DNA from: a virus
Taxonomy: Duplodnaviria > Caudoviricetes
Strand: one strand, 5' to 3'
IMG/VR virus record: IMGVR_UViG_3300030372_004293
Span: 1-38,063 of that record
Length of the DNA: 38,063 nucleotides
The notes beneath the pieces are model-generated. The model had not been told where the DNA came from. It was given only the letters and a program-made list of their open reading frames with translations, and did no database searches. The position numbers and the translations under genes were made by a program. The number at the start of each line of letters is the position of its first letter. The first letter of the stretch is position 1. Below, one piece after another: positions 17,224 through 35,799 of this stretch.

Positions 17224-17236
17224 GATTGCTCCTCCT

Positions 17237-18235
17237 TTAACTTAGCTCTCTTTGACTCATGCTGAACCTGCGGTTGCCTCGCTTGTCCGGCTTAGAGTTC
17301 TTAACGGTAAAGCCTTCCTCTATCTCTATCCCTATGCCAACACCTATGGCCACCTTAAGCCTGGCCTTAATGTTGTCCTGCTCCTCCTTCAGCTCCTTCA
17401 TCTGCTTTGATATGGCCTGATACCTAACAACATCATCCCTGCACTCGGGCGCTTTGGATATGTTGCCGTGCTCAAACCTAGACGCCTTGGCTATCGCGTC
17501 GAAGTCGGTATTAAGGGGCTGCGGAACGTGGTCCCCATTCACCGAGTTCTCCCATAGCCAAGACAGCCTCTTCTCTGCCGCGTCTATCCACTCTTGGTCC
17601 CGTTGTATCTCAAAGATATACAGGTCCTTAGCAGAAGACCCCAGGTCTGCCCCTGCAAGTAGCCTGCAATGCAGGTCCCTTCCGCAAGCACCCACGAGGT
17701 AGCCCATCGGCGCATCTAACACCCATAGCTGGTGCTGGACCTGAGCCCAGTAAGCATAGAGCGTGGTGCCCCTTATCGACAGTGGGTTGCAGCCGGACTC
17801 GGCAAAGGTCTGCCAGGCTGCGAAGTCCTTAACGACCTTAACCTCTATAGATATGTCTATAAGGCCAGGCGTCTCAAGGAAAGCGTCTGGCGTGGCTGTA
17901 GCCCACTCGTACTTGGAATGCCTGAACGAGTATGACCCTGACTTAAGTACCCAGTCAGGACGCCTGTGCTCAACCACTGCCTGCAAGACGTAAGGCTCAA
18001 GCTTTACCCCTAGCTGGACAGCAAACTTGCCAGAGATATCCTCGTGCTGGATGTCTCCCCTGAGTAGCTTGACTGCCGTATAGGGGCCTTGCCACTTGTT
18101 GACACCAAGAAGAGCGGGAGCCGTGCTCGCACCCACGCTTTTGTGTGAGTTGCGCCAGGCGCTCCACTCCTCTTGGCTTAGCCCATGCGAACAGAAGATT
18201 ACCTCCGCTCTTGTTCTTGGGACAGGTGGCTTCAA
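17237..18235 (-). CDS. YqaJ/lambda-type exonuclease
   Basis: EEWSAWR..VGAS, G..LEP, ATPDA, IEVK and YWAQVQHQLWV motifs. The likely start is TTG 18235, overlapping the upstream TGA with SD GAGGTG, rather than 18301. Confidence 0.9.
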   Translation of the reverse strand: MKPPVPRTRAEVIFCSHGLSQEEWSAWRNSHKSVGASTAPALLGVNKWQGPYTAVKLLRGDIQHEDISGKFAVQLGVKLEPYVLQAVVEHRRPDWVLKSGSYSFRHSKYEWATATPDAFLETPGLIDISIEVKVVKDFAAWQTFAESGCNPLSIRGTTLYAYWAQVQHQLWVLDAPMGYLVGACGRDLHCRLLAGADLGSSAKDLYIFEIQRDQEWIDAAEKRLSWLWENSVNGDHVPQPLNTDFDAIAKASRFEHGNISKAPECRDDVVRYQAISKQMKELKEEQDNIKARLKVAIGVGIGIEIEEGFTVKNSKPDKRGNRRFSMSQRELS

Positions 18236-18501
18236 CTCCCCACCTCGTCTGATGGTACAGATTGAAGAACGGTCTGCGTCCTTAACTTGAACCGCTTGCA
18301 CACCTTAATGACAAGCCAGGTTGTAGAGTCTAGCCATTCCTCTTTCTCTAGCCCGTGTCTTAGGTACTTCTCTGCCTCGTCTACGCTGTTCAGCTTTGGC
18401 TGGTTGTCTACATAGAAGAACTCTCCAGGGTTATCGTCGCTGTAGTATGCAAGCATTACCTGACCGTGGTTTCGTCGCGCCTTTGCTTTGTTATCAGTCA
18501 C
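18232..18501 (-). CDS. Hypothetical protein
   Basis: 89-aa ORF with SD GAGGAG, overlapping both neighbours. Confidence 0.7.
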   Translation of the reverse strand: MTDNKAKARRNHGQVMLAYYSDDNPGEFFYVDNQPKLNSVDEAEKYLRHGLEKEEWLDSTTWLVIKVCKRFKLRTQTVLQSVPSDEVGS

Positions 18502-19462
18502 AATACTCTCCTCTCATTGGTTGCTTTCTCCTTCTATAATCAATCGGGTCAGTCTCTCCAGCGTAGTTAGACGCTGCCCATCGAGACTCCACGTCTGCTC
18601 CAAACTCTCTGAACATCGGCGGTATTAGGGAGATAAACACTGTAGCCTTCCCGCCGTGCTCGAACCTGTACCTAAGCAGCCCAGCGACAGAGGCTAGCTG
18701 AGTGTCTGTGTACCCAGGCAGCTTGCGCGAAGAGCTAAGCATGTCGTTCTTAGGCGCACCCCTAGAGCGCGCACTATCCCAGCTATCTATGATTAGGATG
18801 TCCGCATCCCTTAACCGCTTCCACTTCCTGTCGTACCCCTCCTCGTTACCAGCAGACTTGCTGGCGTAAGCCTTCATCGTCTGCTCCCTTATCAGGGCAG
18901 GGTACTTCCAGACCTTGTCCATCATCCCACGTCTAACTATCCTAGATATGATAGTGGACTTCGAGCTGCCCGGCTGACCGTACAGGTAAAGGGGTGACCA
19001 CCCGTCTGACTTTCCAGACCGGTACCACTCGTTAATCACACCCTCTATGTACCTACGGTTCGGCTCTTGCTGGTAGTAGTTATCCACACCCTTAACGATT
19101 GCAGGCTGGTCGGAGTAAAGCGAGCGCCACTTGGACTCGGAAGCATCTCTCGACTTCTTAGCTGCACCTATAGCGGCGCACCCACAATGTCCCTCAAGGT
19201 CATACCAGGTAACGCCACCTTTGGAGTTAACGTGCCTATCCATCTTAGCGTATTCGTTACATCCATCTGCCCAGCAAATCCTAGGCCACGGCTTGTCACA
19301 GTGCATACACTTGCTGTAATCGTTATGAGTAAGAACCTTACGGCACTCCATGCAAGTAGACTCGCCAAGGACAATCCCATGAACAGATTGAATTATATAT
19401 TCAGGAGTTAGCTTGGCTCTAAGCTCTTCAGGTATGCGAGTAAAGACTTCTGATATATTCAA
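18494..19462 (-). CDS. DnaC/IstB-like ATPase with N-terminal Cys-rich (zinc-binding) region
   Basis: CxxC pairs; LYLYGQPGSSKS (atypical Walker A); DADILIIDSW (Walker B-like); RF..GKATVFIS and VESRW. Confidence 0.7.
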   Translation of the reverse strand: MNISEVFTRIPEELRAKLTPEYIIQSVHGIVLGESTCMECRKVLTHNDYSKCMHCDKPWPRICWADGCNEYAKMDRHVNSKGGVTWYDLEGHCGCAAIGAAKKSRDASESKWRSLYSDQPAIVKGVDNYYQQEPNRRYIEGVINEWYRSGKSDGWSPLYLYGQPGSSKSTIISRIVRRGMMDKVWKYPALIREQTMKAYASKSAGNEEGYDRKWKRLRDADILIIDSWDSARSRGAPKNDMLSSSRKLPGYTDTQLASVAGLLRYRFEHGGKATVFISLIPPMFREFGADVESRWAASNYAGETDPIDYRRRKQPMRGEYCD

Positions 19463-19555
19463 TTGTCTATCTCCTTTAGCATTAGTGTCGGGCTAGAAGC
19501 CGTCGCCCTCCGTCGATGTCGGTTGAGACACTGACCAAAGCATAGCGCGTGATAT

Positions 19556-20098
19556 ATGTCAACATATACCATTGTATCCATTGACCCCGGATGGCTGAAC
19601 ACTGGATGGGTCGCCATTCAAGACGGAAAACCGGTCGATGCCGGGGTCATCGTGAATGACAACGCACGCGCGAAGCGCCGGACCCGGACCGAGCGGACTC
19701 GAGATATTATCATCGATGTCATGGCAGTGCTTAACATGTACAAGCCAGACGTCGTTGTGTATGAGCGCAACCTAGGCAGCTTAAGCGTGCGGGCAGCAAC
19801 CGCTATGCGGGCAGCGTACACCATCGTCGTGTCTGCGCTTGCCGCTCTTGGGTATGATAACGAAAGGTGCATCGAGCTAACTCCACAGGCTGTAAGGAAA
19901 CACATAACGGGCAAAGGTAACGGCACCCCTAAGCATCTGCTTAACGAGTGGATAAGGGCGCGCCCCAACTTTAGAGACTTAACCAAGGTGCTGACGGACC
20001 AGGGTATCTGTGAATCTAAGATGGAGCACGCCCTTGATGCTGCCTTACTTGGCTACGTCGCCATGAGGATGGACGAAGTCCGACGCCTTCTTCCCTAA
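19556..20098 (+). CDS. ruvC: RuvC-like Holliday junction resolvase
   Basis: VSIDPGWLNTGW, KPDVVVYE, TPQAVRKHITGKGNG.K and EHALDAA motifs. Confidence 0.92.
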   Translation: MSTYTIVSIDPGWLNTGWVAIQDGKPVDAGVIVNDNARAKRRTRTERTRDIIIDVMAVLNMYKPDVVVYERNLGSLSVRAATAMRAAYTIVVSALAALGYDNERCIELTPQAVRKHITGKGNGTPKHLLNEWIRARPNFRDLTKVLTDQGICESKMEHALDAALLGYVAMRMDEVRRLLP

Positions 20099-20479
20099 CG
20101 CTCTAGGGTGTCCATCCTTAGCCAGCTTCTTATGCCGAAGGCGACCTATCTCTAGGACTGTTTCCTTAACGTCCCATATCTCCGGGTACTCTAGCAGCAC
20201 AAGGTATAGGTCGAACACTGACATGCCTATGTAGCCTGACAGCTTACTCCCGACAGTTGACTTGTGCAGAAGCATTGCATCTGCGAGCCTCTGTCTGCCC
20301 AGGCCAGACCTATCGCTGAACACATCCTTAAGAGTCTGCTTTACAAGGACCTCCCCTTCGGGAGACACCATCTTTAACTGTAGTTCTAACGCCTCAACCT
20401 TGCTTTCAAGGACCATCTTCTTGAGACGCTCCATGTTTAGCTCTGTTGTTAACTTATCGTTGCTCGCTGCATCTGACAT
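20045..20479 (-). CDS. Helix-turn-helix DNA-binding protein
   Basis: GRQRLADAMLLHKSTVGSKLSG resembles an XRE/CII-type HTH; N-terminal coiled coil; SD AAGGAGGT. Confidence 0.6.
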   Translation of the reverse strand: MSDAASNDKLTTELNMERLKKMVLESKVEALELQLKMVSPEGEVLVKQTLKDVFSDRSGLGRQRLADAMLLHKSTVGSKLSGYIGMSVFDLYLVLLEYPEIWDVKETVLEIGRLRHKKLAKDGHPRALGKKASDFVHPHGDVAK

Positions 20480-20490
20480 TATCTACCTCC

Positions 20491-20694
20491 TTAAGGTATT
20501 AACTTCTCTCTCTTGTGTGAGTGGAAAGCGGACGGTGATACTGGCGGGCAGTGCGAGTAATCACACTCCAGGCACCCTTCGCATATGTCGCTATCTTCAG
20601 AGGTATGGAAGCTACCTCCGCACTCTTCGCATACCTTCAGCACTGATATATCAGCCTCAGTTACTGGCTCAAATTGGTCTTCATAAAATAACAT
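20491..20694 (-). CDS. Small acidic zinc-finger-like protein
   Basis: CEECG...CEGC; likely start ATG 20694 after GGAGA. Confidence 0.6.
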   Translation of the reverse strand: MLFYEDQFEPVTEADISVLKVCEECGGSFHTSEDSDICEGCLECDYSHCPPVSPSAFHSHKREKLIP

Positions 20695-20695
20695 G

Positions 20696-20968
20696 TTAGC
20701 TGTCTCCAAGCCTGGCTAACACTGACAATAGATCGTCGTCGGACCCCTTCTCGATGCTTGCCTGTAGAGATTCAGCAAGCGCAATCATGTTGTCTGTGGA
20801 CGACTTGAACGCATGAAGGTAGTAGTCCCTGTCAATAATCAGGTTGACGTAAGCCTTGCCTATTAGCCTTAGCTTCTCTTCGACTGGTATGTTCGCCTTA
20901 ACTAGGTCGTTAAAGTATTTGAGTTCGCTATCAGAGCTGTCGCTTTTCCAGTTGCTGTCGGCTGTCAT
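20696..20968 (-). CDS. Hypothetical protein
   Basis: 90-aa ORF with SD AAGGAG. Confidence 0.7.
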   Translation of the reverse strand: MTADSNWKSDSSDSELKYFNDLVKANIPVEEKLRLIGKAYVNLIIDRDYYLHAFKSSTDNMIALAESLQASIEKGSDDDLLSVLARLGDS

Positions 20969-20999
20969 ATTATAATCTCCTTGGTTGTGCCTGTTGGCA

Positions 21000-21029
21000 T
21001 TGCCTTAATGTGACTGTGGCTGTTATGTT
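21000..21029 (+). promoter_or_regulatory. Putative sigma70 promoter with extended -10, antisense to the early operon
   Basis: TTGCCT (21000-21005), 18-nt spacer ending TGT, then TATGTT (21024-21029). Predicted +1 at about 21036 coincides with the 5' base of a long hairpin. Confidence 0.5.
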
Positions 21030-21035
21030 GCTGGC

Positions 21036-21102
21036 TGGATGGCTGGCGTGGGCGTCTCGGTTTTGCTATCTCCTTGACGGGACGCCCACTGCCGGTCATC
21101 CA
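21036..21102 (+). ncRNA. Candidate hairpin sRNA with anti-Shine-Dalgarno loop
   Basis: 24-bp stem with three G-U pairs and one bulge on the + strand; 18-nt loop GUUUUGCUAUCUCCUUGA. Confidence 0.55.
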
Positions 21103-21106
21103 CTAT

Positions 21107-21382
21107 CTAGAAAGGTATGTCGGCAGGGCTCTTGTACGGATTGCTATCGTCTGCCCACACCGTTGTCCTCACCTCCTTACCATCCCTGATAACGACAAAC
21201 TTATCCGGGTAGTTGCGGTAGATATGCGAAGGGCTGTTATAGATATACACGTTACAGTCCTTCCACTTGTTCGGCACCCCGTGTTTAAGCAGGTTGCTTT
21301 CAAGCTTGTACTCTCGAGTTAACGTACCAGGTAAGCGCTCAAGCTCGTACTCGCCCACCTTATATACGAACGCAATCATCAC
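21107..21382 (-). CDS. Hypothetical protein
   Basis: 91-aa ORF with GTGA overlap and SD GGAGGT. Confidence 0.7.
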   Translation of the reverse strand: MMIAFVYKVGEYELERLPGTLTREYKLESNLLKHGVPNKWKDCNVYIYNSPSHIYRNYPDKFVVIRDGKEVRTTVWADDSNPYKSPADIPF

Positions 21383-21696
21383 CCCACCTCCGGGTACATC
21401 TTGCCAAACGAACAGTACCGATATGTGACACCCCTGCCTGGGCAGAGACCGAGAGACACGATCACCACCCCGTTAGCCATCCTGTTATTGTGCTCCACGT
21501 ACCCACCGTAAACGCCTATCGGCACAACTACTGTGCTCTCATGCCCGAAGTCCACAAGCTCGCTTGCTTCACGGATCATCGCCGCTTCTTCAGGTGCCAG
21601 CTTAAGGCCGCCCTTCATGGCCTCGTTAAGGTCCCTGTTAAGGTCAGTGGTTCGGAACCAACCCGTCCCACTATTTGTCTTAGCTATCATCGCCAT
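21379..21696 (-). CDS. Hypothetical protein
   Basis: 105-aa ORF; SD AAGGAGG suggests the second ATG may be the start. Confidence 0.65.
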   Translation of the reverse strand: MAMIAKTNSGTGWFRTTDLNRDLNEAMKGGLKLAPEEAAMIREASELVDFGHESTVVVPIGVYGGYVEHNNRMANGVVIVSLGLCPGRGVTYRYCSFGKMYPEVG

Positions 21697-22024
21697 CCTC
21701 CTTGGCTACAACACTTCTCCAGCTTGAGTAGGGCCTTAGCCCCCTAAGTAACACGTCTTCAACGAACGCTTCGACTGCCTCTCTTGCGTCAGATAGGCTG
21801 GCGTACTCGCCACGCGGGCTATCGCTACCTGTGTAGTTAAAGGTCCCGATGCCGTCGCCATGCCTGTGGTCATAGACACGCCACACCTCATCATCACTAC
21901 CTACCCTAGCGCTCCTTGCCACACAGAACCAAGCTGTCTGTGGCTTAAGCTCACTACCTCTGGAGATACGCCACGTCACCAGGTTGTTTCTAGGATTGGC
22001 TGGGTCTTTAAGCACAGTCCACAT
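21680..22024 (-). CDS. Hypothetical protein
   Basis: 114-aa ORF with SD AAGGAGGT. Confidence 0.7.
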   Translation of the reverse strand: MWTVLKDPANPRNNLVTWRISRGSELKPQTAWFCVARSARVGSDDEVWRVYDHRHGDGIGTFNYTGSDSPRGEYASLSDAREAVEAFVEDVLLRGLRPYSSWRSVVAKEDGDDS

Positions 22025-22025
22025 G

Positions 22026-22139
22026 CTATCTACCTCCTTGGAATAAGCGCGCCACTAACGGCAGGGATACCAGGCCAAGTATCGTTAGGGCTGGACCCCA
22101 AACCATCAGCGCTAACCCTACAAATAAGTCATCATTCAT
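22026..22139 (-). CDS. Small membrane peptide (37 aa), absent from the ORF track
   Basis: MNDDLFVGLALMVWGPALTILGLVSLPLVARLFQGGR; SD AAGGAG; fills the intergenic gap. Confidence 0.7.
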   Translation of the reverse strand: MNDDLFVGLALMVWGPALTILGLVSLPLVARLFQGGR

Positions 22140-22151
22140 CGTGCTGTCTCC

Positions 22152-22421
22152 TTAGCTGTGCAGCTTACCGTCTTGAGTCACGCCATAGGTCAACACCCTA
22201 TCTGTGCCACGTATCCTAAACGCGACCATGGCGCACCCTACTGGGCAGCCCGCGATGCCGGTCCTGTCAGTACCGACGTAGATAGCGGCACCCTCGTGTT
22301 CGTACCTGTTAACTGTGCGGACTAGGGCTTCGCGCTGCTCCGCTGTTAGTGGAAGTAGATTGTCACCAGGGAACTCCGCAACTCGCTTGTCTATGCTGCT
22401 AATGGCGTCTTCAATATTCAC
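22152..22421 (-). CDS. Hypothetical protein
   Basis: 89-aa ORF with GTG start and SD AAGGAG. Confidence 0.7.
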   Translation of the reverse strand: MNIEDAISSIDKRVAEFPGDNLLPLTAEQREALVRTVNRYEHEGAAIYVGTDRTGIAGCPVGCAMVAFRIRGTDRVLTYGVTQDGKLHS

Positions 22422-22447
22422 CGTGCTATCTCCTTAGCTAGGTGGGT

Positions 22448-22492
22448 AGTGGTAGGGTAGCGCGCCACCGTGACGCGCTACCCCTGGCCACT
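22448..22492 (-). other. Intergenic RNA hairpin without U-tract
   Basis: 14-bp upper stem with two G-U pairs on the - strand, asymmetric internal loop and 5-bp lower stem. Confidence 0.6.
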
Positions 22493-22493
22493 G

Positions 22494-23126
22494 TTAGATC
22501 TCAAGAGCGGGACCGTTGCGACGCGTCGCCGGCGCTGGCGTGTGGTCCACCATGGGCGCGTCAATCTCAAGTCCACGCGCGCGACGCGCGACACGCTCCG
22601 CTGTAGCGTCCGGGTTAGCTAGCCGGTCGCGCGCCGTGGCTGGCGCGGGCTCTGGCGCGGGCTCTGGCGCGGGCGCGACGTGTCGCCGTCCTTGCTTCTC
22701 GATTGCGCCTTTGAGCATGTGTGCGACGCCCATATGTTGTTCGACCCACGGCTTGAGGTCGCCTTCAAAACCAAGCGACGCCCACGCGTCGAGGTCATCG
22801 GGTCCGAACTTGAGCACGGTCAACATGTTCTTAAACGCGGATTGCACGCGCGCGACTGCGCGGTATGCCTCGGTTTCTGGCGTCTTAGACTTCTTGGTCT
22901 TGACCTTGGCAACGGGGGCGACGACTTGCGGCGCAGTATTGCGCGCGTAGACTACGAAGGTAGGGCGCAAGTCCATGGTGATGTTATCGGCGGACACCGT
23001 GACACGTCCGCTTGCGTGTATCTCCACGGTCGCATCCTTGGGTGGCTGCTTACCTGCTAGGGATACGTGCGTGAGGATAGAGACTTCCTGACCGTTGACT
23101 AGGGTGTTATGGTCGAGTGCTTGCAT
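22494..23126 (-). CDS. Hypothetical protein with Pro/Ala/Glu linker
   Basis: 210-aa ORF with SD AAGGAG; a 12-bp tandem repeat near 22640-22674 encodes PAPEPAPEPAP. Confidence 0.7.
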   Translation of the reverse strand: MQALDHNTLVNGQEVSILTHVSLAGKQPPKDATVEIHASGRVTVSADNITMDLRPTFVVYARNTAPQVVAPVAKVKTKKSKTPETEAYRAVARVQSAFKNMLTVLKFGPDDLDAWASLGFEGDLKPWVEQHMGVAHMLKGAIEKQGRRHVAPAPEPAPEPAPATARDRLANPDATAERVARRARGLEIDAPMVDHTPAPATRRNGPALEI

Positions 23127-23155
23127 GGTGTATCTCCTTATTTATGGTGCTAGGG

Positions 23156-24178
23156 TTATGCTGCGAGGGCGCTGACGTGCTGGTACGCGCGGCGGATAGC
23201 CTTCTGACCAGGGCCATTCTGGACCGACTTCCAACGCGAGTTTGCGGCGGACACTGAGCAGCCACCCGAACGCGAGCCGCCGCTAGAATATTGTTCGTAC
23301 TCACTTACGCCACTAAGCAGCTGAAAGCCTGTCCCCGCCATGCCGAACGACTGGTGACCTTGTCCGCCTTGGATTGACTCGACTACGTTACGCCACTTGG
23401 CCACGTCATCGAAGGCGTGGTCACCACTAACGGGATAGGTAGCGCGCACAAAGTCCTGCATTTGCTTCTCGGTGTAGTAAAACGAGCCAATAGCCTGCAA
23501 AGACTCCGACATTGCTTTGACACCGTCGCGCGCAATCAAGCCTGACTGCGTCAAAGCGTGACTGATAACGGAATCCAGGTTCTTTTGGTGCTTAAGCTTG
23601 AACTCTAACGTGTGCCCCTTAGCGCTTGCTAGCAGTTGTGCGAGCATGTTGGTGCATGTAACGTCTTGACCGCACCAGAAAGCCCAAACGGACGCCATGC
23701 CCCCATGACCCCAGCGCACCATAAGCGTGTTCATAATCTCGCGACCTGGCACAGGTTCAAACGTGCTACCGAGATCTAATTGCATCCAATTCGTGAGACC
23801 GGGCTTGTTCAAGTCATCGGAAAAGATGCGCATGACCTTAGAGCCCTTGTGGGCGTCCATAACTGGCTGGAATACGCGCGCGATATCGGACTGTTGAAAC
23901 GCGTTGTACCTTTCGGATACGTTGCCGAAATGCCACCCCGTGTCACTGCGAACCTGGCACAGTCCAGCCTTGTCCTGAAGTCCAGGTTCGAAGCCATGAT
24001 CACGCAAGTCTGCTATGTGCGTGTCGAACCAAAGTCCGGCAGCTTCCATAGAAGCCTGGATATTGTGCGCTAAATCCGGGTTCAACATGTTATCGGTCGG
24101 GGTCCAGTTCATTGCATGCTCTGGCAAACAAGCACCTGTGATTCCGTTGTAGTGCTCAGAAGTGTGAATCTCAGTCAT
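23156..24178 (-). CDS. DUF932-family protein
   Basis: VRSDTG..FGNVSERY..FQ, WGHGG..S, VTCTNML and KLKH match my recollection of the DUF932 (TIGR03299) pattern. Confidence 0.8.
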   Translation of the reverse strand: MTEIHTSEHYNGITGACLPEHAMNWTPTDNMLNPDLAHNIQASMEAAGLWFDTHIADLRDHGFEPGLQDKAGLCQVRSDTGWHFGNVSERYNAFQQSDIARVFQPVMDAHKGSKVMRIFSDDLNKPGLTNWMQLDLGSTFEPVPGREIMNTLMVRWGHGGMASVWAFWCGQDVTCTNMLAQLLASAKGHTLEFKLKHQKNLDSVISHALTQSGLIARDGVKAMSESLQAIGSFYYTEKQMQDFVRATYPVSGDHAFDDVAKWRNVVESIQGGQGHQSFGMAGTGFQLLSGVSEYEQYSSGGSRSGGCSVSAANSRWKSVQNGPGQKAIRRAYQHVSALAA

Positions 24179-24215
24179 GATGTCTCCTTAGATAGTGCGA
24201 AGGCGTGCTAGTACT

Positions 24216-24257
24216 CGCCCTGCTAAGCGTGACCGATAAGTCACGCCTAGACGGGCG
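24216..24257 (-). other. Intergenic RNA hairpin without U-tract
   Basis: CGCCC-GU-CUAGGCGUGAC / GUCACGCUUAG-CA-GGGCG; the G-U pair forms only on the - strand. Confidence 0.6.
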
Positions 24258-24261
24258 CTCA

Positions 24262-24384
24262 CTAACGAGCGATGCGTGCGCGCTTAAGGCGGCGCAACTT
24301 GGACGCGCGGTTAACGCGCGCACGTTGTGCAAGTGGGGAAGCGTTACGGGCGCGCTTAGCTTGGGTCTGTTGTGCAATGGTCAT
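24262..24384 (-). CDS. Arginine-rich peptide (40 aa), absent from the ORF track
   Basis: MTIAQQTQAKRARNASPLAQRARVNRASKLRRLKRARIAR; TAATG coupling to the upstream gene and SD GGGAG. Confidence 0.7.
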   Translation of the reverse strand: MTIAQQTQAKRARNASPLAQRARVNRASKLRRLKRARIAR

Positions 24385-24590
24385 TAGTTAGCTCCCATGT
24401 TCTGGCATGTGATACTCCCACCGAATAAGGATAGGCGCTTCCAGCGTTCCACCTCAGCGTCCGCGTGGCGTAGGTCCTCAGATAGGCGCAAAACCTGTGC
24501 GCGGGACTTTTCAAGTTCAAGACGTACAACGGCCAAGTCGTTGCATACTTGCCTGAAAGCCTTGCTGCGTTCTTTGTGTGCGTCAGTCAT
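24384..24590 (-). CDS. Small coiled-coil early protein
   Basis: 68 aa; TAATG coupling; SD GGAG. Confidence 0.7.
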   Translation of the reverse strand: MTDAHKERSKAFRQVCNDLAVVRLELEKSRAQVLRLSEDLRHADAEVERWKRLSLFGGSITCQNMGAN

Positions 24591-24820
24591 TAGTTGGACT
24601 CCGTGATGCGCGCGACGTTCGCCATGATGCGTTCGAAAGTGGCAGCGCTTTCACGTATCGCATCGTCCATCTCTTGACTGGCCTTGCGCATGGTGTCATC
24701 GGACTTTCGCAAAGCCAGGCGCATATCTTGGCGCGCCTTGCTAAGGGCCAAGAATCGGCGGGATTGAAAGCGCGCCATGCGCATACGCTCATTTTCAAGT
24801 CTCATGTCAATCGGGTTCAT
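24590..24820 (-). CDS. First early gene, small helical protein
   Basis: 76 aa; leader TAAGGAGATACATATG directly after the promoter. Confidence 0.75.
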   Translation of the reverse strand: MNPIDMRLENERMRMARFQSRRFLALSKARQDMRLALRKSDDTMRKASQEMDDAIRESAATFERIMANVARITESN

Positions 24821-24847
24821 ATGTATCTCCTTAGTGAATGTGAAGAG

Positions 24848-24876
24848 ACCTTAAACCCTGACAACTCACGAGTCAA
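24848..24876 (-). promoter_or_regulatory. Sigma70-type early promoter
   Basis: TTGACT-N17-TAAGGT with AT-rich upstream DNA, just before the first early RBS. Confidence 0.75.
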
Positions 24877-24924
24877 GTACTTGTACGCATTAATCAAGAA
24901 TTAATTACCAGAGACTTCTCGCTA

Positions 24925-24941
24925 TACAAGAACCATGCCAG
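24925..24941 (-). promoter_or_regulatory. Sigma54-like -24/-12 element
   Basis: CTGGCATGGTTCTTGTA versus consensus YTGGCACGNNNNTTGCW; the -12 C is mismatched. Confidence 0.35.
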
Positions 24942-25247
24942 GAAATCCTAAGGACGCATGCCCGTCAAGGGCCTGTTTTGGTGCCTTCACGGCGTCGAGT
25001 CTCGGAAGCGATAGGAGTACCAAGCTAAGAGCCCCAAAATGGCAGGACGGGGTATAGGGCTTCGCGTGCAGCGTTCTTGCGCTGGGGTGGTTTGTCTCGT
25101 GTTGTGCGTGCTTTGACGTGTTGTGACGTGGGGTATGGGTGGGGGGTATGGTGGGGTTAGCTCCCGTGGTCCCTTGTCCGTGCAGGTAGCGCCATGGTCC
25201 CGTGTATATGCAGCGCGCCCGCGCGCGTGAGGCATGTGCTCGTGCTT

Positions 25248-25342
25248 GTCAAGCCAGGCTGCGAGCCAGGGCTACCAGGCCAGCCAGTGGGGGCGGCGAA
25301 AATTCTAGCAGGCCAGTCAAGCCAGGCTGTGAGCTAGGGCTA
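25248..25342 (+). repeat. 27-bp direct repeat pair
   Basis: 25248-25274 and 25316-25342 are 25/27 identical. Confidence 0.85.
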
Positions 25343-25496
25343 GGCTGCACAGGTAGGGCGGGGGCTAGCGTGGGCAGGTGGGGGGGAGGGGGTGATGAGA
25401 CGACGGGGTCCGCTCGCCAGGGGCCCCGTGAGAAAGGTACCCTCCCCAAACAACACCCCTCCTGAACGCTGTAGGGGGCCCCAATCTCCCAAACCC

Positions 25497-25525
25497 TTGA
25501 CAGTTACATATTAGTAATATAAGCT
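25497..25525 (+). promoter_or_regulatory. Sigma70-type rightward promoter
   Basis: TTGACA-N17-TAAGCT upstream of the late module. Confidence 0.7.
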
Positions 25526-25575
25526 TCGCTAAGCGCTAAAGAGCTAGCTCTTGGGGCAACGCGAACTTATATTAC
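25514..25575. repeat. 62-bp imperfect palindrome
   Basis: GTAATATAAG/CTTATATTAC and TTCGC/GCGAA arms around the perfect palindrome AAGAGCTAGCTCTT. Confidence 0.85.
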
Positions 25576-25623
25576 AACCTTGTGAGTGTTGTGAGTTGTT
25601 GCGCTAGTTGCCTATAGTGCTGT

Positions 25624-25833
25624 ATGTCTGTGTGTATGGTTAAGTTATTCGTATCTGATCATCTCTACAGCACGAGCACCGTAGCCAAGCGCCTTGACGT
25701 CAAGAACCAGACGTTACTCAAGTGGGTACGTACTGGGACGTTTCCGTCATCGAGTCTTCGTAAGGGCAAGAGTCTGTGGTGGTTGGGTTCGGTGTTAAAC
25801 ACATGGATACAGGAGCACTCTAATGGAGAGTGA
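25624..25833 (+). CDS. Xis/AlpA/MerR-like winged HTH protein
   Basis: LYSTSTVAKRLDVKNQTLLKWVRTGTFP...GKSLWW....LNTWI; start uncertain (25624 or 25636). Confidence 0.8.
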   Translation: MSVCMVKLFVSDHLYSTSTVAKRLDVKNQTLLKWVRTGTFPSSSLRKGKSLWWLGSVLNTWIQEHSNGE

Positions 25834-26212
25834 AGAGTCAGCCAGTTACTCTTACGTCGTTACATCTTCGAGGAACCGTCAGTGGCAGGTTGAGTTACGT
25901 GCCATCCCTACTGAGGGCGGTGTTCTAATCACGAAGGACTGTGTTGATCCGCATCATCCTGACGGCTTTGAGCGTATAGCCTTGGGTGGCATAGCGTTTG
26001 TTCCGTCTGTTGAGTCTGAGCAGGATGCGATCATTCGGGATGTCAACGAGATGGTTAAGGAGATGGTGTCTTCTGCGCCTGTTGCTGTAGACATCCAGCC
26101 TGACCTTGGGTCTATGACTCTTAAGGAGTTAAAGGCTTACGCTAAGGAGAAGGGAGTCTTTGTGGGCAACAAGAAGCGTGCTCGTTTGATTAAGGACTTG
26201 TCTAACCTCTGA
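25823..26212 (+). CDS. Hypothetical protein with C-terminal Rho-N/HeH-like domain
   Basis: DLGSMTLKELKAYAKEKGV....KKRARLI pattern; SD AGGAG. Confidence 0.65.
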   Translation: MESEESASYSYVVTSSRNRQWQVELRAIPTEGGVLITKDCVDPHHPDGFERIALGGIAFVPSVESEQDAIIRDVNEMVKEMVSSAPVAVDIQPDLGSMTLKELKAYAKEKGVFVGNKKRARLIKDLSNL

Positions 26213-27846
26213 TGGTAGTCCGTGTTTCAGAAGAGAGTTTGAACGACCGTAAGATTAGGTTGTGGCGGCTTAACAAGCATAAGGCCATGACTGAGCTTCT
26301 TAAGGTGCTCTCTGAGGAGCGGTCTATTGTCCCTTTCAGTTTTAGAAAGGGTCTTAAGAAGTATGGTCAGCTTAGGCGTAGGGAGAGGTGGATATACACC
26401 CTTAAGTCCAGACGCCTTGGGTATACGACTACTATAGCTGGCTATAACTTCATCGAGGCTCTCTTTGAGCCTAATACTCGAATCTGTGTGATTGCCCATA
26501 CGGATTCAGCAGCTAAGAAGATAGCTAGAATCTATTGGAGGTTCTGGCTCCATCTTCCTGACTGGATGAAGGAAAGAGAAGAGTTCGCCTCAATGCGCTC
26601 AAGCGCTTATGAACTCATCTTGGGCAACGGGTCCCGTATCGTTACAAGTACAGCCAACACCGAATCGTTCCGTGGCGAAGCCTACGACGTTATTCATATG
26701 AGCGAGTTCGCGTTCTATGCAGACATCGAGGCTACGCTCATGGCTGTGCTACAGACGGCTACGCCTGGGGCTAGGGTAGACTTTGAGACTACCGCTAACG
26801 GGATGAATGAAGCGCACGCTATCTGGGAAGACCCAGAGGTTGGCTACGCTAAGCACTTCGATACCTGGGTTGGTAACGTCCTGTGTGAAAGCGAAGAAAA
26901 GCCCAAGCGCATACCCGGTGAGATTGTTGAGCTTGGTAAGCAGGCCAGGCTAAACGTTAAGCAGCTCTGGTGGATTACGCATAGGTACCAGAAGTATTGC
27001 CGGGCTAACCTTAATATACTCAAGCAAGAGTACCCCCGGACGCCAGAGGAAGCCTTCATCACTACAGGTAGAAGGTTCTTCGCTAGCGTCTACTACCCAG
27101 GAGCCCAAGCCGTTGAAGGCTACAAGCAGTTTGCCCCGCCAAAGGTGGGCAGGCTCTACTCGATGGGAATTGATACCGCGACAGGGGACCCTAACGGAGA
27201 CTTCAGCGCGTTCGCCGTGTGGGACGTTACCAACAAGGCTAAGCCGCAGATTGCGTCGAGCTTTTATAAGCGGACAGACGTAATCCCTTTTGCCAGAATT
27301 ATTGTTGATGAGCTTAAGAAATACAACGCTTTGGCCGTACCTGAAGTCAATGGCGTTGGACTTACTATACTTACTCAGCTACAGCTATCTGGCTGGGGCT
27401 TTGTTTATCGACGTCTCCAGTACGACAAGATAGACAACCAACACAAAGAGACCCTGGGCTTTACCACCACGCGCAAGACAAGGACTATGGTCCTCGTAGC
27501 GCTACAAGAGCTGGTAGCCACAGGGATGCTAGAGGTCGTAGACGAAAGGCTTAAGGCTGAGATTAACGCCTTTATCTATGACAAGAGAGGCAAGCCTATC
27601 GCCTCCACTGGACACCACGACGACATGATATTTGCGCATGCACTGGCCTGGGAAGGTGCCAAGTACATAGAGATGGAACCGGAGATGAGGAAGGTGCAGA
27701 AGCCCTCTAACATCAGAGAACTCTTGCTATATGAGCTTCAGACCGGTAACACTAAGCGCAAGAAAGGTGAATGGCTAGGAGAGCCTGACGAAGAACCAGA
27801 ACCTTCCCCCATGCAAGTCCTGTTTAACAAGCAAAGGAAATCATAG
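26212..27846 (+). CDS. terL: Terminase large subunit
   Basis: LKSRRLGYTT (Walker A), IHMSEFAF (Walker B), ETTANG, and nuclease motifs GIDTATG..DFSA and HHDDMIFA. Confidence 0.95.
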   Translation: MVVRVSEESLNDRKIRLWRLNKHKAMTELLKVLSEERSIVPFSFRKGLKKYGQLRRRERWIYTLKSRRLGYTTTIAGYNFIEALFEPNTRICVIAHTDSAAKKIARIYWRFWLHLPDWMKEREEFASMRSSAYELILGNGSRIVTSTANTESFRGEAYDVIHMSEFAFYADIEATLMAVLQTATPGARVDFETTANGMNEAHAIWEDPEVGYAKHFDTWVGNVLCESEEKPKRIPGEIVELGKQARLNVKQLWWITHRYQKYCRANLNILKQEYPRTPEEAFITTGRRFFASVYYPGAQAVEGYKQFAPPKVGRLYSMGIDTATGDPNGDFSAFAVWDVTNKAKPQIASSFYKRTDVIPFARIIVDELKKYNALAVPEVNGVGLTILTQLQLSGWGFVYRRLQYDKIDNQHKETLGFTTTRKTRTMVLVALQELVATGMLEVVDERLKAEINAFIYDKRGKPIASTGHHDDMIFAHALAWEGAKYIEMEPEMRKVQKPSNIRELLLYELQTGNTKRKKGEWLGEPDEEPEPSPMQVLFNKQRKS

Positions 27847-28695: not shown

Positions 28696-30204
28696 GTGGC
28701 ACACGGAATCGGAGCTGACACGTCGTCAGCAGCCTCTATCTTAAAGAAATGGTATCGCGGACCCGTTAAGTATGAGCTTAACGACCGCACCTGGGCGTTT
28801 AAGAACTTCAAAAAAAGCAGCTACTCATGGAACGGTTCTGAAGTAATCGTCCCAATTCACACTGGACGCAACAGCGGCGTTGGCTACAAGGCGGAAGGCG
28901 GCACGCTTCCGACCGCTGGCCACCAGACGTTCGAGCACTTGACCATCCCGGCCAAGTTTTACTACGGGCGTTTCCAGCTCACCGGCCCTTCAATGGCTAA
29001 GGCCAAGTCTTCAGGTCAAGGCGCGTTCCTTAACCTTCTTAAGACTGAGATGGACCGTCTTGTTATCGACGTGAGCATGAACGCTGACGCTCGTGCTGTG
29101 ACTGGTGGCCCAGTGCGTGGTCTTCTAAATGAGCACAAGGCTAACGCTGCCCAAACGGCAGCTCAGTCAAACGCTGCTCCTGGCGGTGGAGCTACCGTCT
29201 GGGAATACAGCGGAGATTACGCTCCGTTCTTAAATGTAGACCCAACAGCCGTGGCAGCAACTACCTGGGTTAAGGTCAACCTCATCCGGCTTGATACTTA
29301 CGAGCTGATTACAGGTGGTGGTGTTAATCCCAATATCTTTGTCACCAACATTCCTGCTGGTATTGGTCAGGGAAATCTTGCCCCTGGACAGATTGAGCTG
29401 ACGTTCTGTAGCGACACGGCAGGTGCGCCGTTCGACACCTTTGACACGTCAGTTGTTGAGGATGGTTACGCCATTGCGTTGCAGGTTGCAGCAACTCAGG
29501 CTGCAAGCGCAGCAGCTCCTACCACGATGGGGCTTGACCCGACTGTTGCTGCCTTTGACTTAACACCTGCTAACTATCCCCCGCAGTTTCCTCTCTACGC
29601 TACAGGTGGGAATTTAAGCACATGCTTAGAGCCTGAAGGTATGCTTTCCAACCTTTGCACGCAAAGCCACTTCGGCGTTGCCCGTGCAACTGTTGGCGGC
29701 GTTAAGCACATCCTCCAGTCGAATATGCACACGATGGCTGTCGGTGGCGCTCAAACTCGCACCACCCTTACAAAGAAACGCATCCAGCAAATGATGGACA
29801 AGGTTCTGCTGCGAAGCGGGAAAGAGTTCACTATCTTGGCTTGCTCGCCTATGCAGCGTGCTGAGTACGTTGCTTTGCTTACCGGGCTTATCGAAGTTAC
29901 TGGTCAGAAGGCTACGAAGGGAGACGCTGGGTTTGTCTCTACAGAGAAGGGCGGCCTGAGCTATGGCGGCTTGCGTATCTGGACGAGTCAGCACATCCCC
30001 GATGGAATGTGGTTCTTCCTTACTCTCGATGCCTGGGAGATGGCTACGCTTGAGGGAGGCGACTTTGCTGACCTCGACGGCTCCATCCTTAGCCGCGTAA
30101 GCGCATCGGATACCTGGGAAGGGTTCTGGCGTATGTATTACAACACGTACACCGCCTCCCCTAACTGCAATGCCGTCCTTACGGGCGTCAGTTTGGGCGC
30201 TTAG
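28696..30204 (+). CDS. Major capsid protein (HK97 fold, with large insertion)
   Basis: GSEVIVPIHTGRNSG...AEGGTLP E-loop-like segment and GLSYGGLRIWTSQHIPDG C-terminal segment; Ala/Thr/Gly-rich middle; SD AGGAG. Confidence 0.88.
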   Translation: MAHGIGADTSSAASILKKWYRGPVKYELNDRTWAFKNFKKSSYSWNGSEVIVPIHTGRNSGVGYKAEGGTLPTAGHQTFEHLTIPAKFYYGRFQLTGPSMAKAKSSGQGAFLNLLKTEMDRLVIDVSMNADARAVTGGPVRGLLNEHKANAAQTAAQSNAAPGGGATVWEYSGDYAPFLNVDPTAVAATTWVKVNLIRLDTYELITGGGVNPNIFVTNIPAGIGQGNLAPGQIELTFCSDTAGAPFDTFDTSVVEDGYAIALQVAATQAASAAAPTTMGLDPTVAAFDLTPANYPPQFPLYATGGNLSTCLEPEGMLSNLCTQSHFGVARATVGGVKHILQSNMHTMAVGGAQTRTTLTKKRIQQMMDKVLLRSGKEFTILACSPMQRAEYVALLTGLIEVTGQKATKGDAGFVSTEKGGLSYGGLRIWTSQHIPDGMWFFLTLDAWEMATLEGGDFADLDGSILSRVSASDTWEGFWRMYYNTYTASPNCNAVLTGVSLGA

Positions 30205-30207
30205 ATA

Positions 30208-30375
30208 ATGCTTGAGTTCATGCTGCTGTCGGCCTCGTTGCTCTTTCTTTCTGGAGCGTCCTTTGTTGGGCTGCTTGCATACAGAATGCACAAGGGTGAC
30301 AGGCTGACGCAGCATGACTCGATGCCTGTCAGCCCAATTCAGCAACACTTCGAAAGGTATAACGGGAGAGAATGA
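30208..30375 (+). CDS. Small protein with N-terminal transmembrane helix (55 aa), absent from the ORF track
   Basis: MLEFMLLSASLLFLSGASFVGLLAYRMHKGD...NGRE; ATGA overlap with the next gene. Confidence 0.65.
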   Translation: MLEFMLLSASLLFLSGASFVGLLAYRMHKGDRLTQHDSMPVSPIQQHFERYNGRE

Positions 30376-30989
30376 TGACTCAGAAAGCTAGCGATGGCTT
30401 CACGCTAGGAGCAGGCAACCTTTCGTTGCCTGACTTGGCGCAGCCCAATCTTACGACAACCGTTCCAGTAACCGTCCAGTCTAATTCGATTGTTAAGGGA
30501 GCTTTTACAATCGTTCAAATTGGCGACGGCGGCGGCCTTTGCGTTGCTCCGTACCTTGTTACTGATTTCAAAAATGCAGGAACCACGGGCAGCAAGGTGT
30601 GGCTTGTGTCAGGAACTCACGGGCAGTCTGATGCGGAGTACGTGTATGTGAAAGACCAGGGAGATGCGATTCCTGACAACCATGCTTCTCAGGCGTATAC
30701 CGTCTTTGTGAAAAAAGACGGGTCTGGCATTGCTTACTCTAGAGAGTCTGCCCACGCCTCAGATGATCCTCACGGGCAGACGATGTACTTATCCACCAGC
30801 TCTGGGCGACTTCTAGAGATTCCATACGTTGGAGGCGCTCACACGTCAGCAGACTATGTAAACCTTCTCTCCGACCATGCCGCAGCGGGTAACACCAACA
30901 CGGTAGTCGGCATAGGTGACGGCGGGTTAGGCGTCACCATGACATTCCAGACAAGCAGCAAGGCTTGCCTTGTTAATGTAATCTCTTAA
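30372..30989 (+). CDS. Putative virion structural/decoration protein, paralog A
   Basis: 205 aa, beta-rich; homologous to the next gene. Confidence 0.7.
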   Translation: MMTQKASDGFTLGAGNLSLPDLAQPNLTTTVPVTVQSNSIVKGAFTIVQIGDGGGLCVAPYLVTDFKNAGTTGSKVWLVSGTHGQSDAEYVYVKDQGDAIPDNHASQAYTVFVKKDGSGIAYSRESAHASDDPHGQTMYLSTSSGRLLEIPYVGGAHTSADYVNLLSDHAAAGNTNTVVGIGDGGLGVTMTFQTSSKACLVNVIS

Positions 30990-30999
30990 ACGGGAGAGA

Positions 31000-31632
31000 A
31001 TGATGACCCAGAAAGCTAGCGATGGCTTCACGCTAGGAACAGGGAACCTATCGTTACCAAACCTTGCGCAGCCAAACATTACAACTACGACAACCGTCAA
31101 AATTGCAAATAATAGCATTGATACCGCCAGCCGGGTTCACTTTTGTGCAGACGGAGGGATTGCTGTTATCACTTCTTTAGTTGCAGACTTCGCTACAGCC
31201 GGAGCCGCCGGGTCTAGAATGTGGCTGGTGTCTGGAGCTTTGGGAAGTAATGACGCTGACTACATATGGGTTAAAGACGGAAAGTTTGGGTCTGGGAACG
31301 AAGGCAATCTTTTATGCAGCAACGCTAGCATAAAGGGCGTGTACACTCTTCATGTAAAAAAAGATGGCAGCGAGTTTGTTTGGGAGCCAAACACAGCCCA
31401 CCCTGACAGAGGGGTTGTTGTTCCAAACTCAGTTTACATCTCGCTTATGTCTGGCAAGCTACTTGAGGTGAAATACAAAGACGGCGCAGCCGCTTCGTCT
31501 GATTACGTATATGCGACTTTTGACCATAGCAAAAAAGAGGGCAATGACATTATTGGGGCTAATTTTGGCTCTGATGTGACTTCAACAATCGAGACAAGCA
31601 GCAAGGCTTGCCTTGTCAATGTGATTGTTTAA
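31000..31632 (+). CDS. Putative virion structural/decoration protein, paralog B
   Basis: 210 aa; shares N-terminus MMTQKASDGFTLG and C-terminus TSSKACLVNVI with paralog A. Confidence 0.7.
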   Translation: MMTQKASDGFTLGTGNLSLPNLAQPNITTTTTVKIANNSIDTASRVHFCADGGIAVITSLVADFATAGAAGSRMWLVSGALGSNDADYIWVKDGKFGSGNEGNLLCSNASIKGVYTLHVKKDGSEFVWEPNTAHPDRGVVVPNSVYISLMSGKLLEVKYKDGAAASSDYVYATFDHSKKEGNDIIGANFGSDVTSTIETSSKACLVNVIV

Positions 31633-33891: not shown

Positions 33892-35799
33892 ATGGCGCTC
33901 ATCCCGTTTATGAAAAAGAGCAAGAGCGACGAGCCGGACTTCCCTAAAGACCCGGCGTCGATGATTACTCGCTCTAAGAACGACCGGAACCTAGACAAAG
34001 AGGTCTGGGATTTGTGCGCCCAGTTTCTTCAAGGCAACCAGTGGCTAAGATGGAGAGACAAGGACGAGATATGGCGCACGATTGTTGACAAGCAAGACAG
34101 CCAATTCGAGCGCATAACCGTAAACAACATCCTTGTTAGGTATCGCAACGTCCGCTCCCGACTGTCACTTGCGTATCCGTCTATTGCGGTAATGCCGGCC
34201 AGCACATCTCCTGAAGACATCACTAAGGCCAAGGCTTCCGAACTTGCTATCAGCTACCTGTGGAAGGCTGACGACCTTGAGGGGAAGTTCGACAAGGCTA
34301 TCGGGCACCTTCTTACATTTGGTTGCGCCGGGCTTCACACCTACTACGACGAGTACCTTGGCAGGCCAACTGTTGAGGTCTTCTCTCCTTACGACATCTT
34401 TCCAGAGCCTGACTGCTCCAGCTTTGAAGACTGCGACTGGTGCGCAATAAGGACTTTCCACACAAAGAAAGACCTTCTTGAGACATACGGAGTTACGCCA
34501 AAGCTCCGCAAGCTCATTGAGGCTAACGCTTCAGCGCCCATGAGCCCGGTAAGCGAAGGCGCTAACTACACAGACGGGGAGAGGCACCCCAAGAACCGCA
34601 TCGAGCTGTACGAGTTCTACTGGCGAGATGGCCGGCATGGCATAGCCCTTAACGACGTGTGGCTCTACAAGGGATACGAAGACAAGTACGACTATCCTAT
34701 TGAGATAATCGAATACTCAAACATCCCAACGAAGCTCTGGCCTATCGGGTTAGTCATGCCAATGATTGACCCGCAGTACCAGTACAACAAAACCAGAAGC
34801 AGGATTGGGGCTAACGTGGCTGTTCACAGCAGCCCCGTCTGGATGGTTCCTCGAGGTGCCGGCGTAGCTAAGACAGCGCTAAGCAATCGGCCTAACTCTG
34901 TAGTTATGTATAATCAGGGAGCCGGCAAGCCTACTAGAGATGCTCCGCCCCCTGTCTCGTCTGGCGCGTTTACTCACGCAGAGATGCTGGTCAGAGAGAT
35001 TGATGACGCCAGCGGCACCTACCGCACGATGATGGGCCAGAGAGAGCCTGGCATCCACAGCGGCACAGCCATTAGAGAGATGGCCAACCAGGGCGTTACG
35101 CAGTTGCAGATGACACAGGCTAGCATTGAGCGCGCCGCTGTCCGCGTAGCCAAGCGTATGCTTAAGCTGATGGCTGCAAACATTGAGACGAGTAAGGTGA
35201 TTACTGCGTTTGATAGCTCAGGGCTTATCGTCTCGCAGGCAATCGCTAACACCAACCTGTCTGAAACGCCTGAAGTGTTCTTCCAGGCAGGCTCCATGTT
35301 TAGAGACAATGCCGCCGAAAGAGAGCGCGCACTGCTTGACCAGTTTGACCGAGGGTTAATTACGCCACAGGAATACAGGCAGCAGTCCACGTTTAGGTCT
35401 GGGCCTGTCTTTGCTGTACAGAGAATGGAATCTATATCTCATTTTAGAGAACTGCTTGAAGCCGCTAAGGCAGGCTACATCATCGAGATACCCCCATGGG
35501 CAGACCTCGAAGCATTCCGCATTGTGTGGGAGCAGTTCATGAAGTCTCCAGAGTACTACTCTCTGGAGCCTGCTCCCTGGCAGTACGTTGCCGAAGTGTA
35601 CACACAGGTGATGCAGATGTTGATGGGTGGTGCTCCTGGCGCAGCTCCTCCAGCCGATGGAGCACCGCCCAGCAACATGGCTAGCGTTCAGAATAGGGCT
35701 GGGGCTGCGGGAGCAATGGCTACTAGTCCCCAGGCTGAGTTCACCCAGGCTCCAGCCCCCCCAACTATCCCCGGCAATAAAGGGGTGGAGGCCGTATGA
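33892..35799 (+). CDS. Portal protein (P22-like)
   Basis: FLQGNQW, ITVNNI, SPYDIFPEP, WPIGLVMPMIDPQYQYNK and SGTAI motifs; Pro/Ala-rich C-terminal tail. Confidence 0.9.
   Translation: MALIPFMKKSKSDEPDFPKDPASMITRSKNDRNLDKEVWDLCAQFLQGNQWLRWRDKDEIWRTIVDKQDSQFERITVNNILVRYRNVRSRLSLAYPSIAVMPASTSPEDITKAKASELAISYLWKADDLEGKFDKAIGHLLTFGCAGLHTYYDEYLGRPTVEVFSPYDIFPEPDCSSFEDCDWCAIRTFHTKKDLLETYGVTPKLRKLIEANASAPMSPVSEGANYTDGERHPKNRIELYEFYWRDGRHGIALNDVWLYKGYEDKYDYPIEIIEYSNIPTKLWPIGLVMPMIDPQYQYNKTRSRIGANVAVHSSPVWMVPRGAGVAKTALSNRPNSVVMYNQGAGKPTRDAPPPVSSGAFTHAEMLVREIDDASGTYRTMMGQREPGIHSGTAIREMANQGVTQLQMTQASIERAAVRVAKRMLKLMAANIETSKVITAFDSSGLIVSQAIANTNLSETPEVFFQAGSMFRDNAAERERALLDQFDRGLITPQEYRQQSTFRSGPVFAVQRMESISHFRELLEAAKAGYIIEIPPWADLEAFRIVWEQFMKSPEYYSLEPAPWQYVAEVYTQVMQMLMGGAPGAAPPADGAPPSNMASVQNRAGAAGAMATSPQAEFTQAPAPPTIPGNKGVEAV

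Follow-up and report, generated by a model that had tools for sequence, protein, structure and literature searches.

A long inverted repeat lies in the gap between two minus-strand genes of an uncultured phage, and the question that it raises is which strand of this element acts and on which partners. The window, i.e. the whole stretch of DNA that was analysed, corresponds to the IMG/VR record IMGVR_UViG_3300030372_004293 (38,063 nt; Duplodnaviria; Caudoviricetes), which comes from marine and seawater metagenomes. A 98-nt overlap between its ends indicates a complete circular phage genome, and the virus record is rated as 100% complete. The structural genes (terminase, capsid, portal and lysin) are carried by the plus strand, and the minus strand holds, from approximately 15.8 to 24.8 kb, a block of small genes together with those for an ERF ssDNA-annealing protein, a RecE-like nuclease, a DUF932 protein and an IstB/DnaC-like loader. 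Judging from this gene content, the minus-strand block would be the early one, and it is so termed hereafter. The loader gene (18494-19462), which a previous reading of the sequence alone had regarded as DnaC-like, was indeed assigned as IstB/DnaC-like (atlas score 0.97), with a weak match to a helicase loader of the PDB (E 0.23). The same sequence-only reading had recognised no integrase, and none appeared among the 50 ORFs scanned against PHROGs, nor was any lysogeny module found in the phage genome.

With regard to the general layout, an ORF of about 949 codons apparently crosses the terminal overlap (36468-38063 and 1-1350, plus strand), the first ORF of the window being its C-terminal part, and genes 30372 and 31000 constitute a tandem duplication with near-identical starts (30361-30460 and 30989-31088) and ends (30942-30989 and 31585-31632). 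The RuvC resolvase gene (19556-20098, plus strand) is a late-strand gene enclosed by the early block, and a palindrome (ATATGT/ACATAT) spans its start, which has no Shine-Dalgarno (SD) sequence.

Anatomy and strand preference of the hairpin

The stem of 24 bp previously described for this gap was recovered on the plus strand by RNA folding, with a 5′ arm at 21036-21059 and a 3′ arm at 21078-21102 that contains a single bulged U (T21090 in the DNA). Both arms enclose an open loop of 18 nt (21060-21077, GUUUUGCUAUCUCCUUGA), made up of a variable U-run (21060-21064) and an invariant core, GCUAUCUCCUUGA (21065-21077), which is antisense to AAGGAGAUAGC. Each base of the loop has a probability of being unpaired of 0.77-1.0, and the anti-SD seed is single-stranded in the predicted fold. 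The element occurs in a single copy, and it is the sole hairpin of the 38-kb window with a stem of at least 20 bp and a loop of at least 8 nt. Folding of both strands bore out the preference for the plus strand formerly deduced from the wobble pairs (−46.0 kcal/mol, z −7.9, vs −32.4 kcal/mol, z −5.7, for the minus strand), and none of 200 shuffled sequences matched the RNA fold energy of either strand. The hairpin is a real, non-random feature. Its three wobble positions (21042:21096, 21044:21094 and 21057:21080) are all G-U on the plus strand, an arrangement expected by chance alone in one of eight cases if transitions fall evenly. No match was found in Rfam for positions 18000-27000 (4227 families, E up to 1).

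A hairpin in this location may also act within the early mRNA, i.e. on the minus strand, either as an RNase III site, as a 3′ stabiliser just past the stop codon at 21107, or as a start-less SD that would hold a 30S subunit and protect the RNA downstream. The RNase III sites of T7 early mRNAs and the STAB-SD elements offer precedents for such roles. The minus-strand fold is itself far from chance, the hairpin begins a few bases past the stop codon, and a natural change at 21080 improves the pairing of both strands. However, the stem on that strand contains three A-C mismatches and no G-U pair, with a fourth A-C in one variant genotype (X12), no U-tract accompanies it, and the conserved plus-strand promoter predicted at the base of the stem (see below) would be left unexplained, which makes an element of the early mRNA quite unlikely.

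The hairpin could also work as DNA, through a cruciform or a single-stranded hairpin involved in replication or recombination, or derive from a REP-like repeat. The genes for ERF, the RecE-like nuclease and RuvC are all found within 4 kb, and the DNA fold is likewise better on the plus strand (−23.3 vs −17.4 kcal/mol). Sequences of the REP/REPIN type are multi-copy and show an inner palindrome in each arm. The element is single copy in the window, and none of the 119 viral matches listed for its 5′ arm has an inverted partner or a REP-like inner palindrome, so that a REP/REPIN origin was rejected. A role at the DNA level, which explains neither the promoter nor the match between loop and leaders, seems highly improbable.

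Predicted promoter, 3′ end and natural variation

The plus-strand promoter put forward in the sequence-only reading, TTGCCT-N18-TATGTT with an extended TG, is present upstream of the stem. Its −35 element (TTGCCT, 21000-21005) and extended −10 element (TG-n-TATGTT, 21021-21029, with the TG at 21021-21022) are separated by an 18-nt spacer, and the promoter ends 7 nt before the stem, a spacing from which transcription would start at, or adjoining, position 21036. The predicted promoter matches 8 of the 12 consensus positions, plus the TG, and a standard scan at 9 of 12 misses it. It is the sole site of the type TTG.../TGnTA...T on both strands of the 38 kb (0.9 expected by chance) and one of 62 sites at the loosest cut-off. 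The chance of such a placement at the stem base ranges from 0.0003 to 0.004 (the latter for the loosest cut-off, with 62 sites and the right 5-nt slot), under criteria and cut-offs that were chosen after the site had been seen. A palindrome upstream of the −35 element (TGCC-N4-GGCA) occurs at a frequency attributable to chance (2 found vs 1.06 expected).

A second promoter-like sequence, TTGTGA-N18-TATAGT (25589-25626, plus strand), stops 5 nt short of the ATG of the gene heading the late operon; this gene is of the excisionase-type HTH class and has no SD. The mRNA of this gene is likely leaderless, and would thus be beyond the block by an anti-SD RNA. The same spacing and strand as in the hairpin promoter hint at a shared control of both sites.

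There is no U-tract after the stem on either strand, and the hairpin, with an 18-nt loop, was therefore discarded as an intrinsic terminator. Lacking an intrinsic terminator past the stem, the sequence does not delimit a discrete small RNA, and the first weak terminator-like folds on the plus strand occur at approximately 21672 and 22692. This arrangement would also suit a long cis-antisense transcript running from this promoter into the upstream early genes, where the hairpin would be a 5′ stabiliser and the loop a relic leader, and repression would proceed by full-length duplexes or by polymerase collision. The resemblance of the loop to a typical early leader fits this scenario, as do the cassette swaps of early genes seen in the genotype X4, which could leave relic leaders behind. 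On the other hand, the loop core is unchanged whereas the U-run varies, late leaders avoid AAGGAG, and genes outside a plus-strand transcript starting at 21036 (20696, 20045 and the loader gene) also have sites of 9-12 pairs, all of which makes the long cis-antisense transcript an unlikely explanation.

Natural variation was read from six of the 22 listed runs; four of these (X4, X6, X7 and X12) cover the hairpin, and X8 and X13 gave no coverage. X7 is identical to the window across the hairpin, and in the three variant genotypes (X4, X6 and X12) both promoter elements and the whole region 21000-21029 are unchanged, with variable positions at 20984, 20987, 20993 and 21034. Two natural changes in the 3′ arm preserve pairing on the plus strand: a G>A at 21080 (X4 and X6), which converts U-G into U-A, and an A>G at 21102 (X12), which converts U-A into U-G and keeps the pair on the plus strand only. 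Both are one-sided, and no double compensatory change was found among the covering runs. The core of the loop, GCUAUCUCCUUGA, is invariant in all four runs, and the U-run alone varies, through a 2-nt insertion and one substitution in X6. The contigs of X6 and X12 have depths of 4.3 and 3.1, at which errors are possible, and one difference in each is not itemised. The X4 genotype has 52 differences in 20718-21379 and only 2 in the 125 nt of the element (20994-21118; p 0.0005), vs 2 in 106 nt of adjacent coding DNA (p 0.002); since this adjacent DNA is equally little changed, the low divergence alone is no proof of selection, and it may reflect recombination instead.

A 44-codon ORF of the minus strand (21099-20965), missed in the sequence-only reading, spans the hairpin. 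It was rejected as a protein-coding gene, being frameshifted in X4 (2-nt deletion) and X6 (2-nt insertion). With this frame lost in two of the three variant genotypes, and with no start codon behind the loop SD in any relative nor, as formerly stated, following the SD on the mRNA strand of the window, the loop does not behave as the ribosome-binding site of an ORF that relatives keep intact.

A direct repeat of 29 nt (86%) at 22129-22157 and 22411-22439 covers two early leaders together with their start codons. In X4, the gene between both repeats is swapped for another sequence, the gene 20491-20709 is absent, and an insertion of 350 nt occurs at 21379. By this replacement, loss and insertion, the early genes behave as swappable cassettes.

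Complementarity of the loop to early and late leaders

The loop was compared with the leaders of the early genes, all of them on the minus strand. The best predicted target is the leader of gene 22152-22421, where the 12-nt exact match previously reported (22424-22435) extends to 13 contiguous pairs. The other exact matches of that report were also recovered, at the leaders of the loader gene (19467-19476, 10 pairs), of gene 22494-23126 (23131-23139, 9 nt), of gene 20696-20968 (20975-20983, 9 pairs; outside a plus-strand transcript from 21036) and of the first early gene, 24590-24820 (24824-24832, 9 nt; 10 pairs in the duplex, in a leader predicted to be structured). Two more sites were confirmed in part. 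The match of 11 out of 12 nt at 22142-22153, before a 37-aa ORF, stands as a count, but an A-C mismatch leaves a contiguous seed of 8 bp; and the site described as a bulged match at 22024-22040, before gene 21680-22024, exists, but as 11 contiguous pairs with one G-U (22030-22040). Further predicted targets are the leaders of gene 20045-20479 (20483-20494, 12 contiguous pairs with G-U) and gene 21379-21696 (21697-21704, 8 pairs), and weaker ones those of the DUF932 gene, 23156-24178 (24183-24190, 8 pairs), and of the ERF gene (17231-17237, 7 pairs, open).

The 37-aa ORF (22026-22139) encodes a hydrophobic peptide with a basic C-terminus behind a strong leader; its similarity to small membrane toxins or exclusion peptides is one of shape alone, and NCBIfam gave no match. 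Just upstream of the best-matching leader there is a short perfect stem, GGGTAGCGCG/CGCGCTACCC (22445-22485, minus strand), a possible processing or stabilising hairpin.

The preference of the loop for early over late ribosome-binding sites, which the sequence-only reading had pointed out, became clear when leaders were counted. With curated starts, AAGGAG occurs within 20 nt of the start codon in 11 of the 16 early genes and in none of the 25 late ones (Fisher p 1.4e-6), and a contiguous seed whose energy, including the opening of the target, is −7 kcal/mol or better was found in 10 of 16 early vs 0 of 25 late leaders. Among 2000 shuffled loops with CUCCUU kept fixed, the real loop beats 99.3% on the early leaders (p 0.007) and is unremarkable on the late ones (p 0.29). 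It also beats antisense copies of 11 out of 15 real early leaders, and copies of the other 4 bind the remaining leaders better than it does. Two start positions used in the shuffle and antisense-copy tests were off by 2 and 6 nt, and the early/late counts use the corrected starts. In a genome-wide duplex scan, two sites in plus-strand coding regions score slightly above the best leader. The loop thus reads as a typical strong early leader backwards, no better than the best antisense-copied early leaders, and it may have arisen from a copied leader just as it may serve an antisense function.

Nineteen distant relatives without the hairpin served as a control for the early/late split. In these genomes, which have about 35% identity in the capsid protein, probably infect other hosts and are partly redundant, AAGGAG was counted before 20 of 140 automated starts on the early strand and before 28 of 224 on the late strand (p 0.64). 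The same automated start calls in the window gave 11 of 18 on the early strand and 0 of 11 on the late strand. Two of the relatives (G004 and G005) have a slight early preference for AAGGAG (4/11 and 3/11), and no hairpin was found in them. In another four (G001, G003, G008 and G014; L142-L147, L156-L157 and L168-L169), a leader of the form GGAGG(G/A)CT(AG/CC) is repeated on the early strand, and a hairpin with a matching loop was not found.

Another explanation would be a general anti-SD decoy directed mainly at host mRNAs, the phage early leaders matching the loop because they copy strong host leaders. The motif CUCCUU is part of the usual tail of 16S rRNA. The core of the loop equals this part, the early leaders are simply stronger SDs, and a generic anti-SD also binds early leaders better than late ones (p 0.001), the added advantage of the loop being borderline (p 0.06). 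Nevertheless, the bases beyond the core fit the phage early leaders better than those of the shuffled loops, and it is unlikely that a phage would expose its own early genes to the strongest match without that being the purpose. A decoy for host mRNAs is therefore regarded as very unlikely.

Homologues beyond approximately 92% identity were not found in viral, metagenome, genome-contig, annotated-phage, plasmid or protein searches. Among viral contigs, searches by the DUF932 protein, the terminase, the stem-loop pattern and close capsid alignment yielded no close or mid-range DNA, and the metagenome contigs contained only two near-identical loci. Genome contigs gave two short MAG contigs with 33-35% capsid identity and no evidence of a host. 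Nothing above chance level came from the annotated phages (15 records with E 0.4-4) or from the plasmids (23 records with E 2-7). At the protein level, DUF932 retrieved only the 92% relative and gene 21107 only itself; two capsid proteins with about 65% aligned identity exist. A 16-mer of the loop had 62 viral matches, none of them within a long stem. Among the 119 viral matches listed for the upper-stem inverted repeat (about half of the collection), neither the 45 that fold best nor the 46 with an SD-like middle include one with this loop in a stem of the kind. Capsid alignment delineated 78 loci of a wider marine family, and 21 distant records of this family (whole or partial; 19 in the later scans) are devoid of a comparable hairpin and of any shared early gene nearby.

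Many distant relatives carry, downstream of the capsid gene, a long hairpin with a CU-rich loop (CCUCCU). These hairpins were rejected as homologues, as they fall within the start of an ORF for a small membrane protein and their loop corresponds to leucine codons. In the window, the start of such an ORF right after the major capsid gene is likewise spanned by a very stable hairpin (30204-30375, plus strand; −64 kcal/mol over 133 nt), found with different sequences in many family members (L093, L095, L104, L108, L113-L118, L122-L124, L127, L131, L136, L137 and L140), which may represent a conserved translation step-down after the capsid gene. Another strong hairpin (35617-35678, plus strand; about −38 kcal/mol) is embedded in the 3′ end of the portal gene, and its energy differs little between the two strands.

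Proposed mode of action and known antisense systems

The way in which phages shut off their early genes is only partly understood, and the phage antisense RNAs known so far mostly control one gene or operon. For the element described here, the favoured reading, to which a probability of about 0.5 is assigned, is that of a plus-strand antisense hairpin RNA acting in trans, which would mask the ribosome-binding sites of early genes and dampen their translation. The anatomy of the hairpin, its strand bias, the placement of the promoter, the early/late split of the leaders and the pattern of variation are observed, whereas it is inferred that the RNA is transcribed, where it ends, that it pairs in vivo and that it represses early genes. 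The trans-acting RNA advanced in the sequence-only reading is thus retained as a structured plus-strand RNA with its own predicted promoter and an early-favouring loop. The dormancy switch and the targeting of host mRNAs that accompanied it found no support, and no lysogeny module was found in the genome.

The process would begin with the host RNA polymerase starting at approximately 21036. The stem of the 67-nt hairpin would fold at once, shielding the 5′ end, and the 3′ end would be trimmed back to the stem, or else the RNA would stay longer, no terminator being seen. The core of the loop, CUCCUUGA, would seed on AAGGAG and extend to 8-13 pairs, with the U-run as a flexible linker. In an 18-nt loop with a seed of 12-13 nt, the U-run would be what is left to span the helix, which would fit with its being the part of the loop that varies. 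The stable RNA would accumulate during infection and lower the translation of early genes, including that of the helicase loader, and late genes, with leaders of the type TAGGAG, GGGAG or weaker, would escape. The outcome would be a brake that acts on early expression with some delay, which seems likelier than a sharp switch, since a host-type sigma-70 promoter would fire from the start of infection.

Among the known systems, the C4 antisense RNA of phages P1 and P7 is likewise phage-encoded and, as described in the cited sections, blocks the translation of a phage mRNA by pairing of its open loops with the ribosome-binding region (PMC5320573, PMC12197685); for the present hairpin, the equivalent is a predicted complementarity. 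According to the same sections, C4 has three stems and about 77 nt, is cut out by RNase P and regulates one target operon through loops a′ and b′ (PMC5320573, PMC12197685), whereas here there are one 24-bp stem, one loop, a predicted start at the stem base that suggests a primary 5′ end, and about ten predicted targets. The hairpin was rejected as a C4 RNA, as it has neither an Rfam match nor the P1-P3 layout of three stems and two loops. The cuckoo (RSs0680/ar14) sRNAs of Alphaproteobacteria likewise display an anti-SD motif in hairpin loops but, in the account consulted, they consist of 2-4 short hairpins, each with CCUCCUCCC (PMC4615179), in contrast to a single long phage hairpin with GCUAUCUCCUUGA that matches the leaders of the phage itself. 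Having one hairpin and the loop GUUUUGCUAUCUCCUUGA instead of CCUCCUCCC, the element was also rejected as a cuckoo/ar14 RNA. The antisense RNAs Sar of P22, OOP of lambda and aQ share with it an opposite-strand promoter inside a phage operon, although in the passages cited they are cis-encoded and act on one gene each (ant, cII and Q, respectively) (PMC12197685), and the hairpin loop would reach many leaders in trans.

A different kind of parallel is found in the SAS of cluster K mycobacteriophages, a standardised extended SD before non-structural genes that was proposed as a binding site, with its RNA or protein partner left open (PMC3203893). In the portions of that work considered here, one SAS copy is unlinked to a gene start and, in the K1 phages, is inverted on the genome, no hairpin or promoter being described for it (PMC3203893). 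The phage studied here similarly combines a standardised extended leader with one copy off any gene start, but the odd copy is oriented as the leaders are and is made antisense by the predicted promoter on the opposite strand, and the sequences differ. Its leaders, of the AAGGAGATA type, do not conform to the 13-bp GGGATAGGAGCCC consensus as given in the source, and were not classed as SAS. At the functional level, the closest counterpart would be the endoribonuclease RegB of T4, which, in the text cited, inactivates early mRNAs class-wide at a shared GGAG-containing SD with an extended consensus (PMC3014915). As a protein, RegB cleaves the SD, assisted by S1 (PMC3014915), whereas in the present case an RNA would mask it.

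A more ambitious reading, which can be offered only tentatively, is that the phage sorts its genes by SD variant, with AAGGAG(AUAG) as an early address that late genes avoid, and that one self-promoted hairpin RNA shuts off the early class, as an RNA-only counterpart of RegB and a member of a widespread and undescribed class of anti-leader RNAs that would include the missing partner of SAS. In the literature covered, largely outside subscription journals, no phage RNA was found that targets a class of the phage's own genes via a shared SD. If true, a whole gene class would be silenced by a 67-nt RNA that recognises a common ribosome-binding code. Such an RNA would amount to a simple timer that needs no protein, would offer an explanation for the standardised leaders seen elsewhere among phages, and would supply synthetic gene control with a compact part acting on several targets. 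In any case, when set beside C4, the cuckoo sRNAs, Sar, OOP, aQ, SAS and RegB, the hairpin appears from its sequence to fall outside the described families, and would represent a new form of loop-presented antisense RNA with a predicted function.
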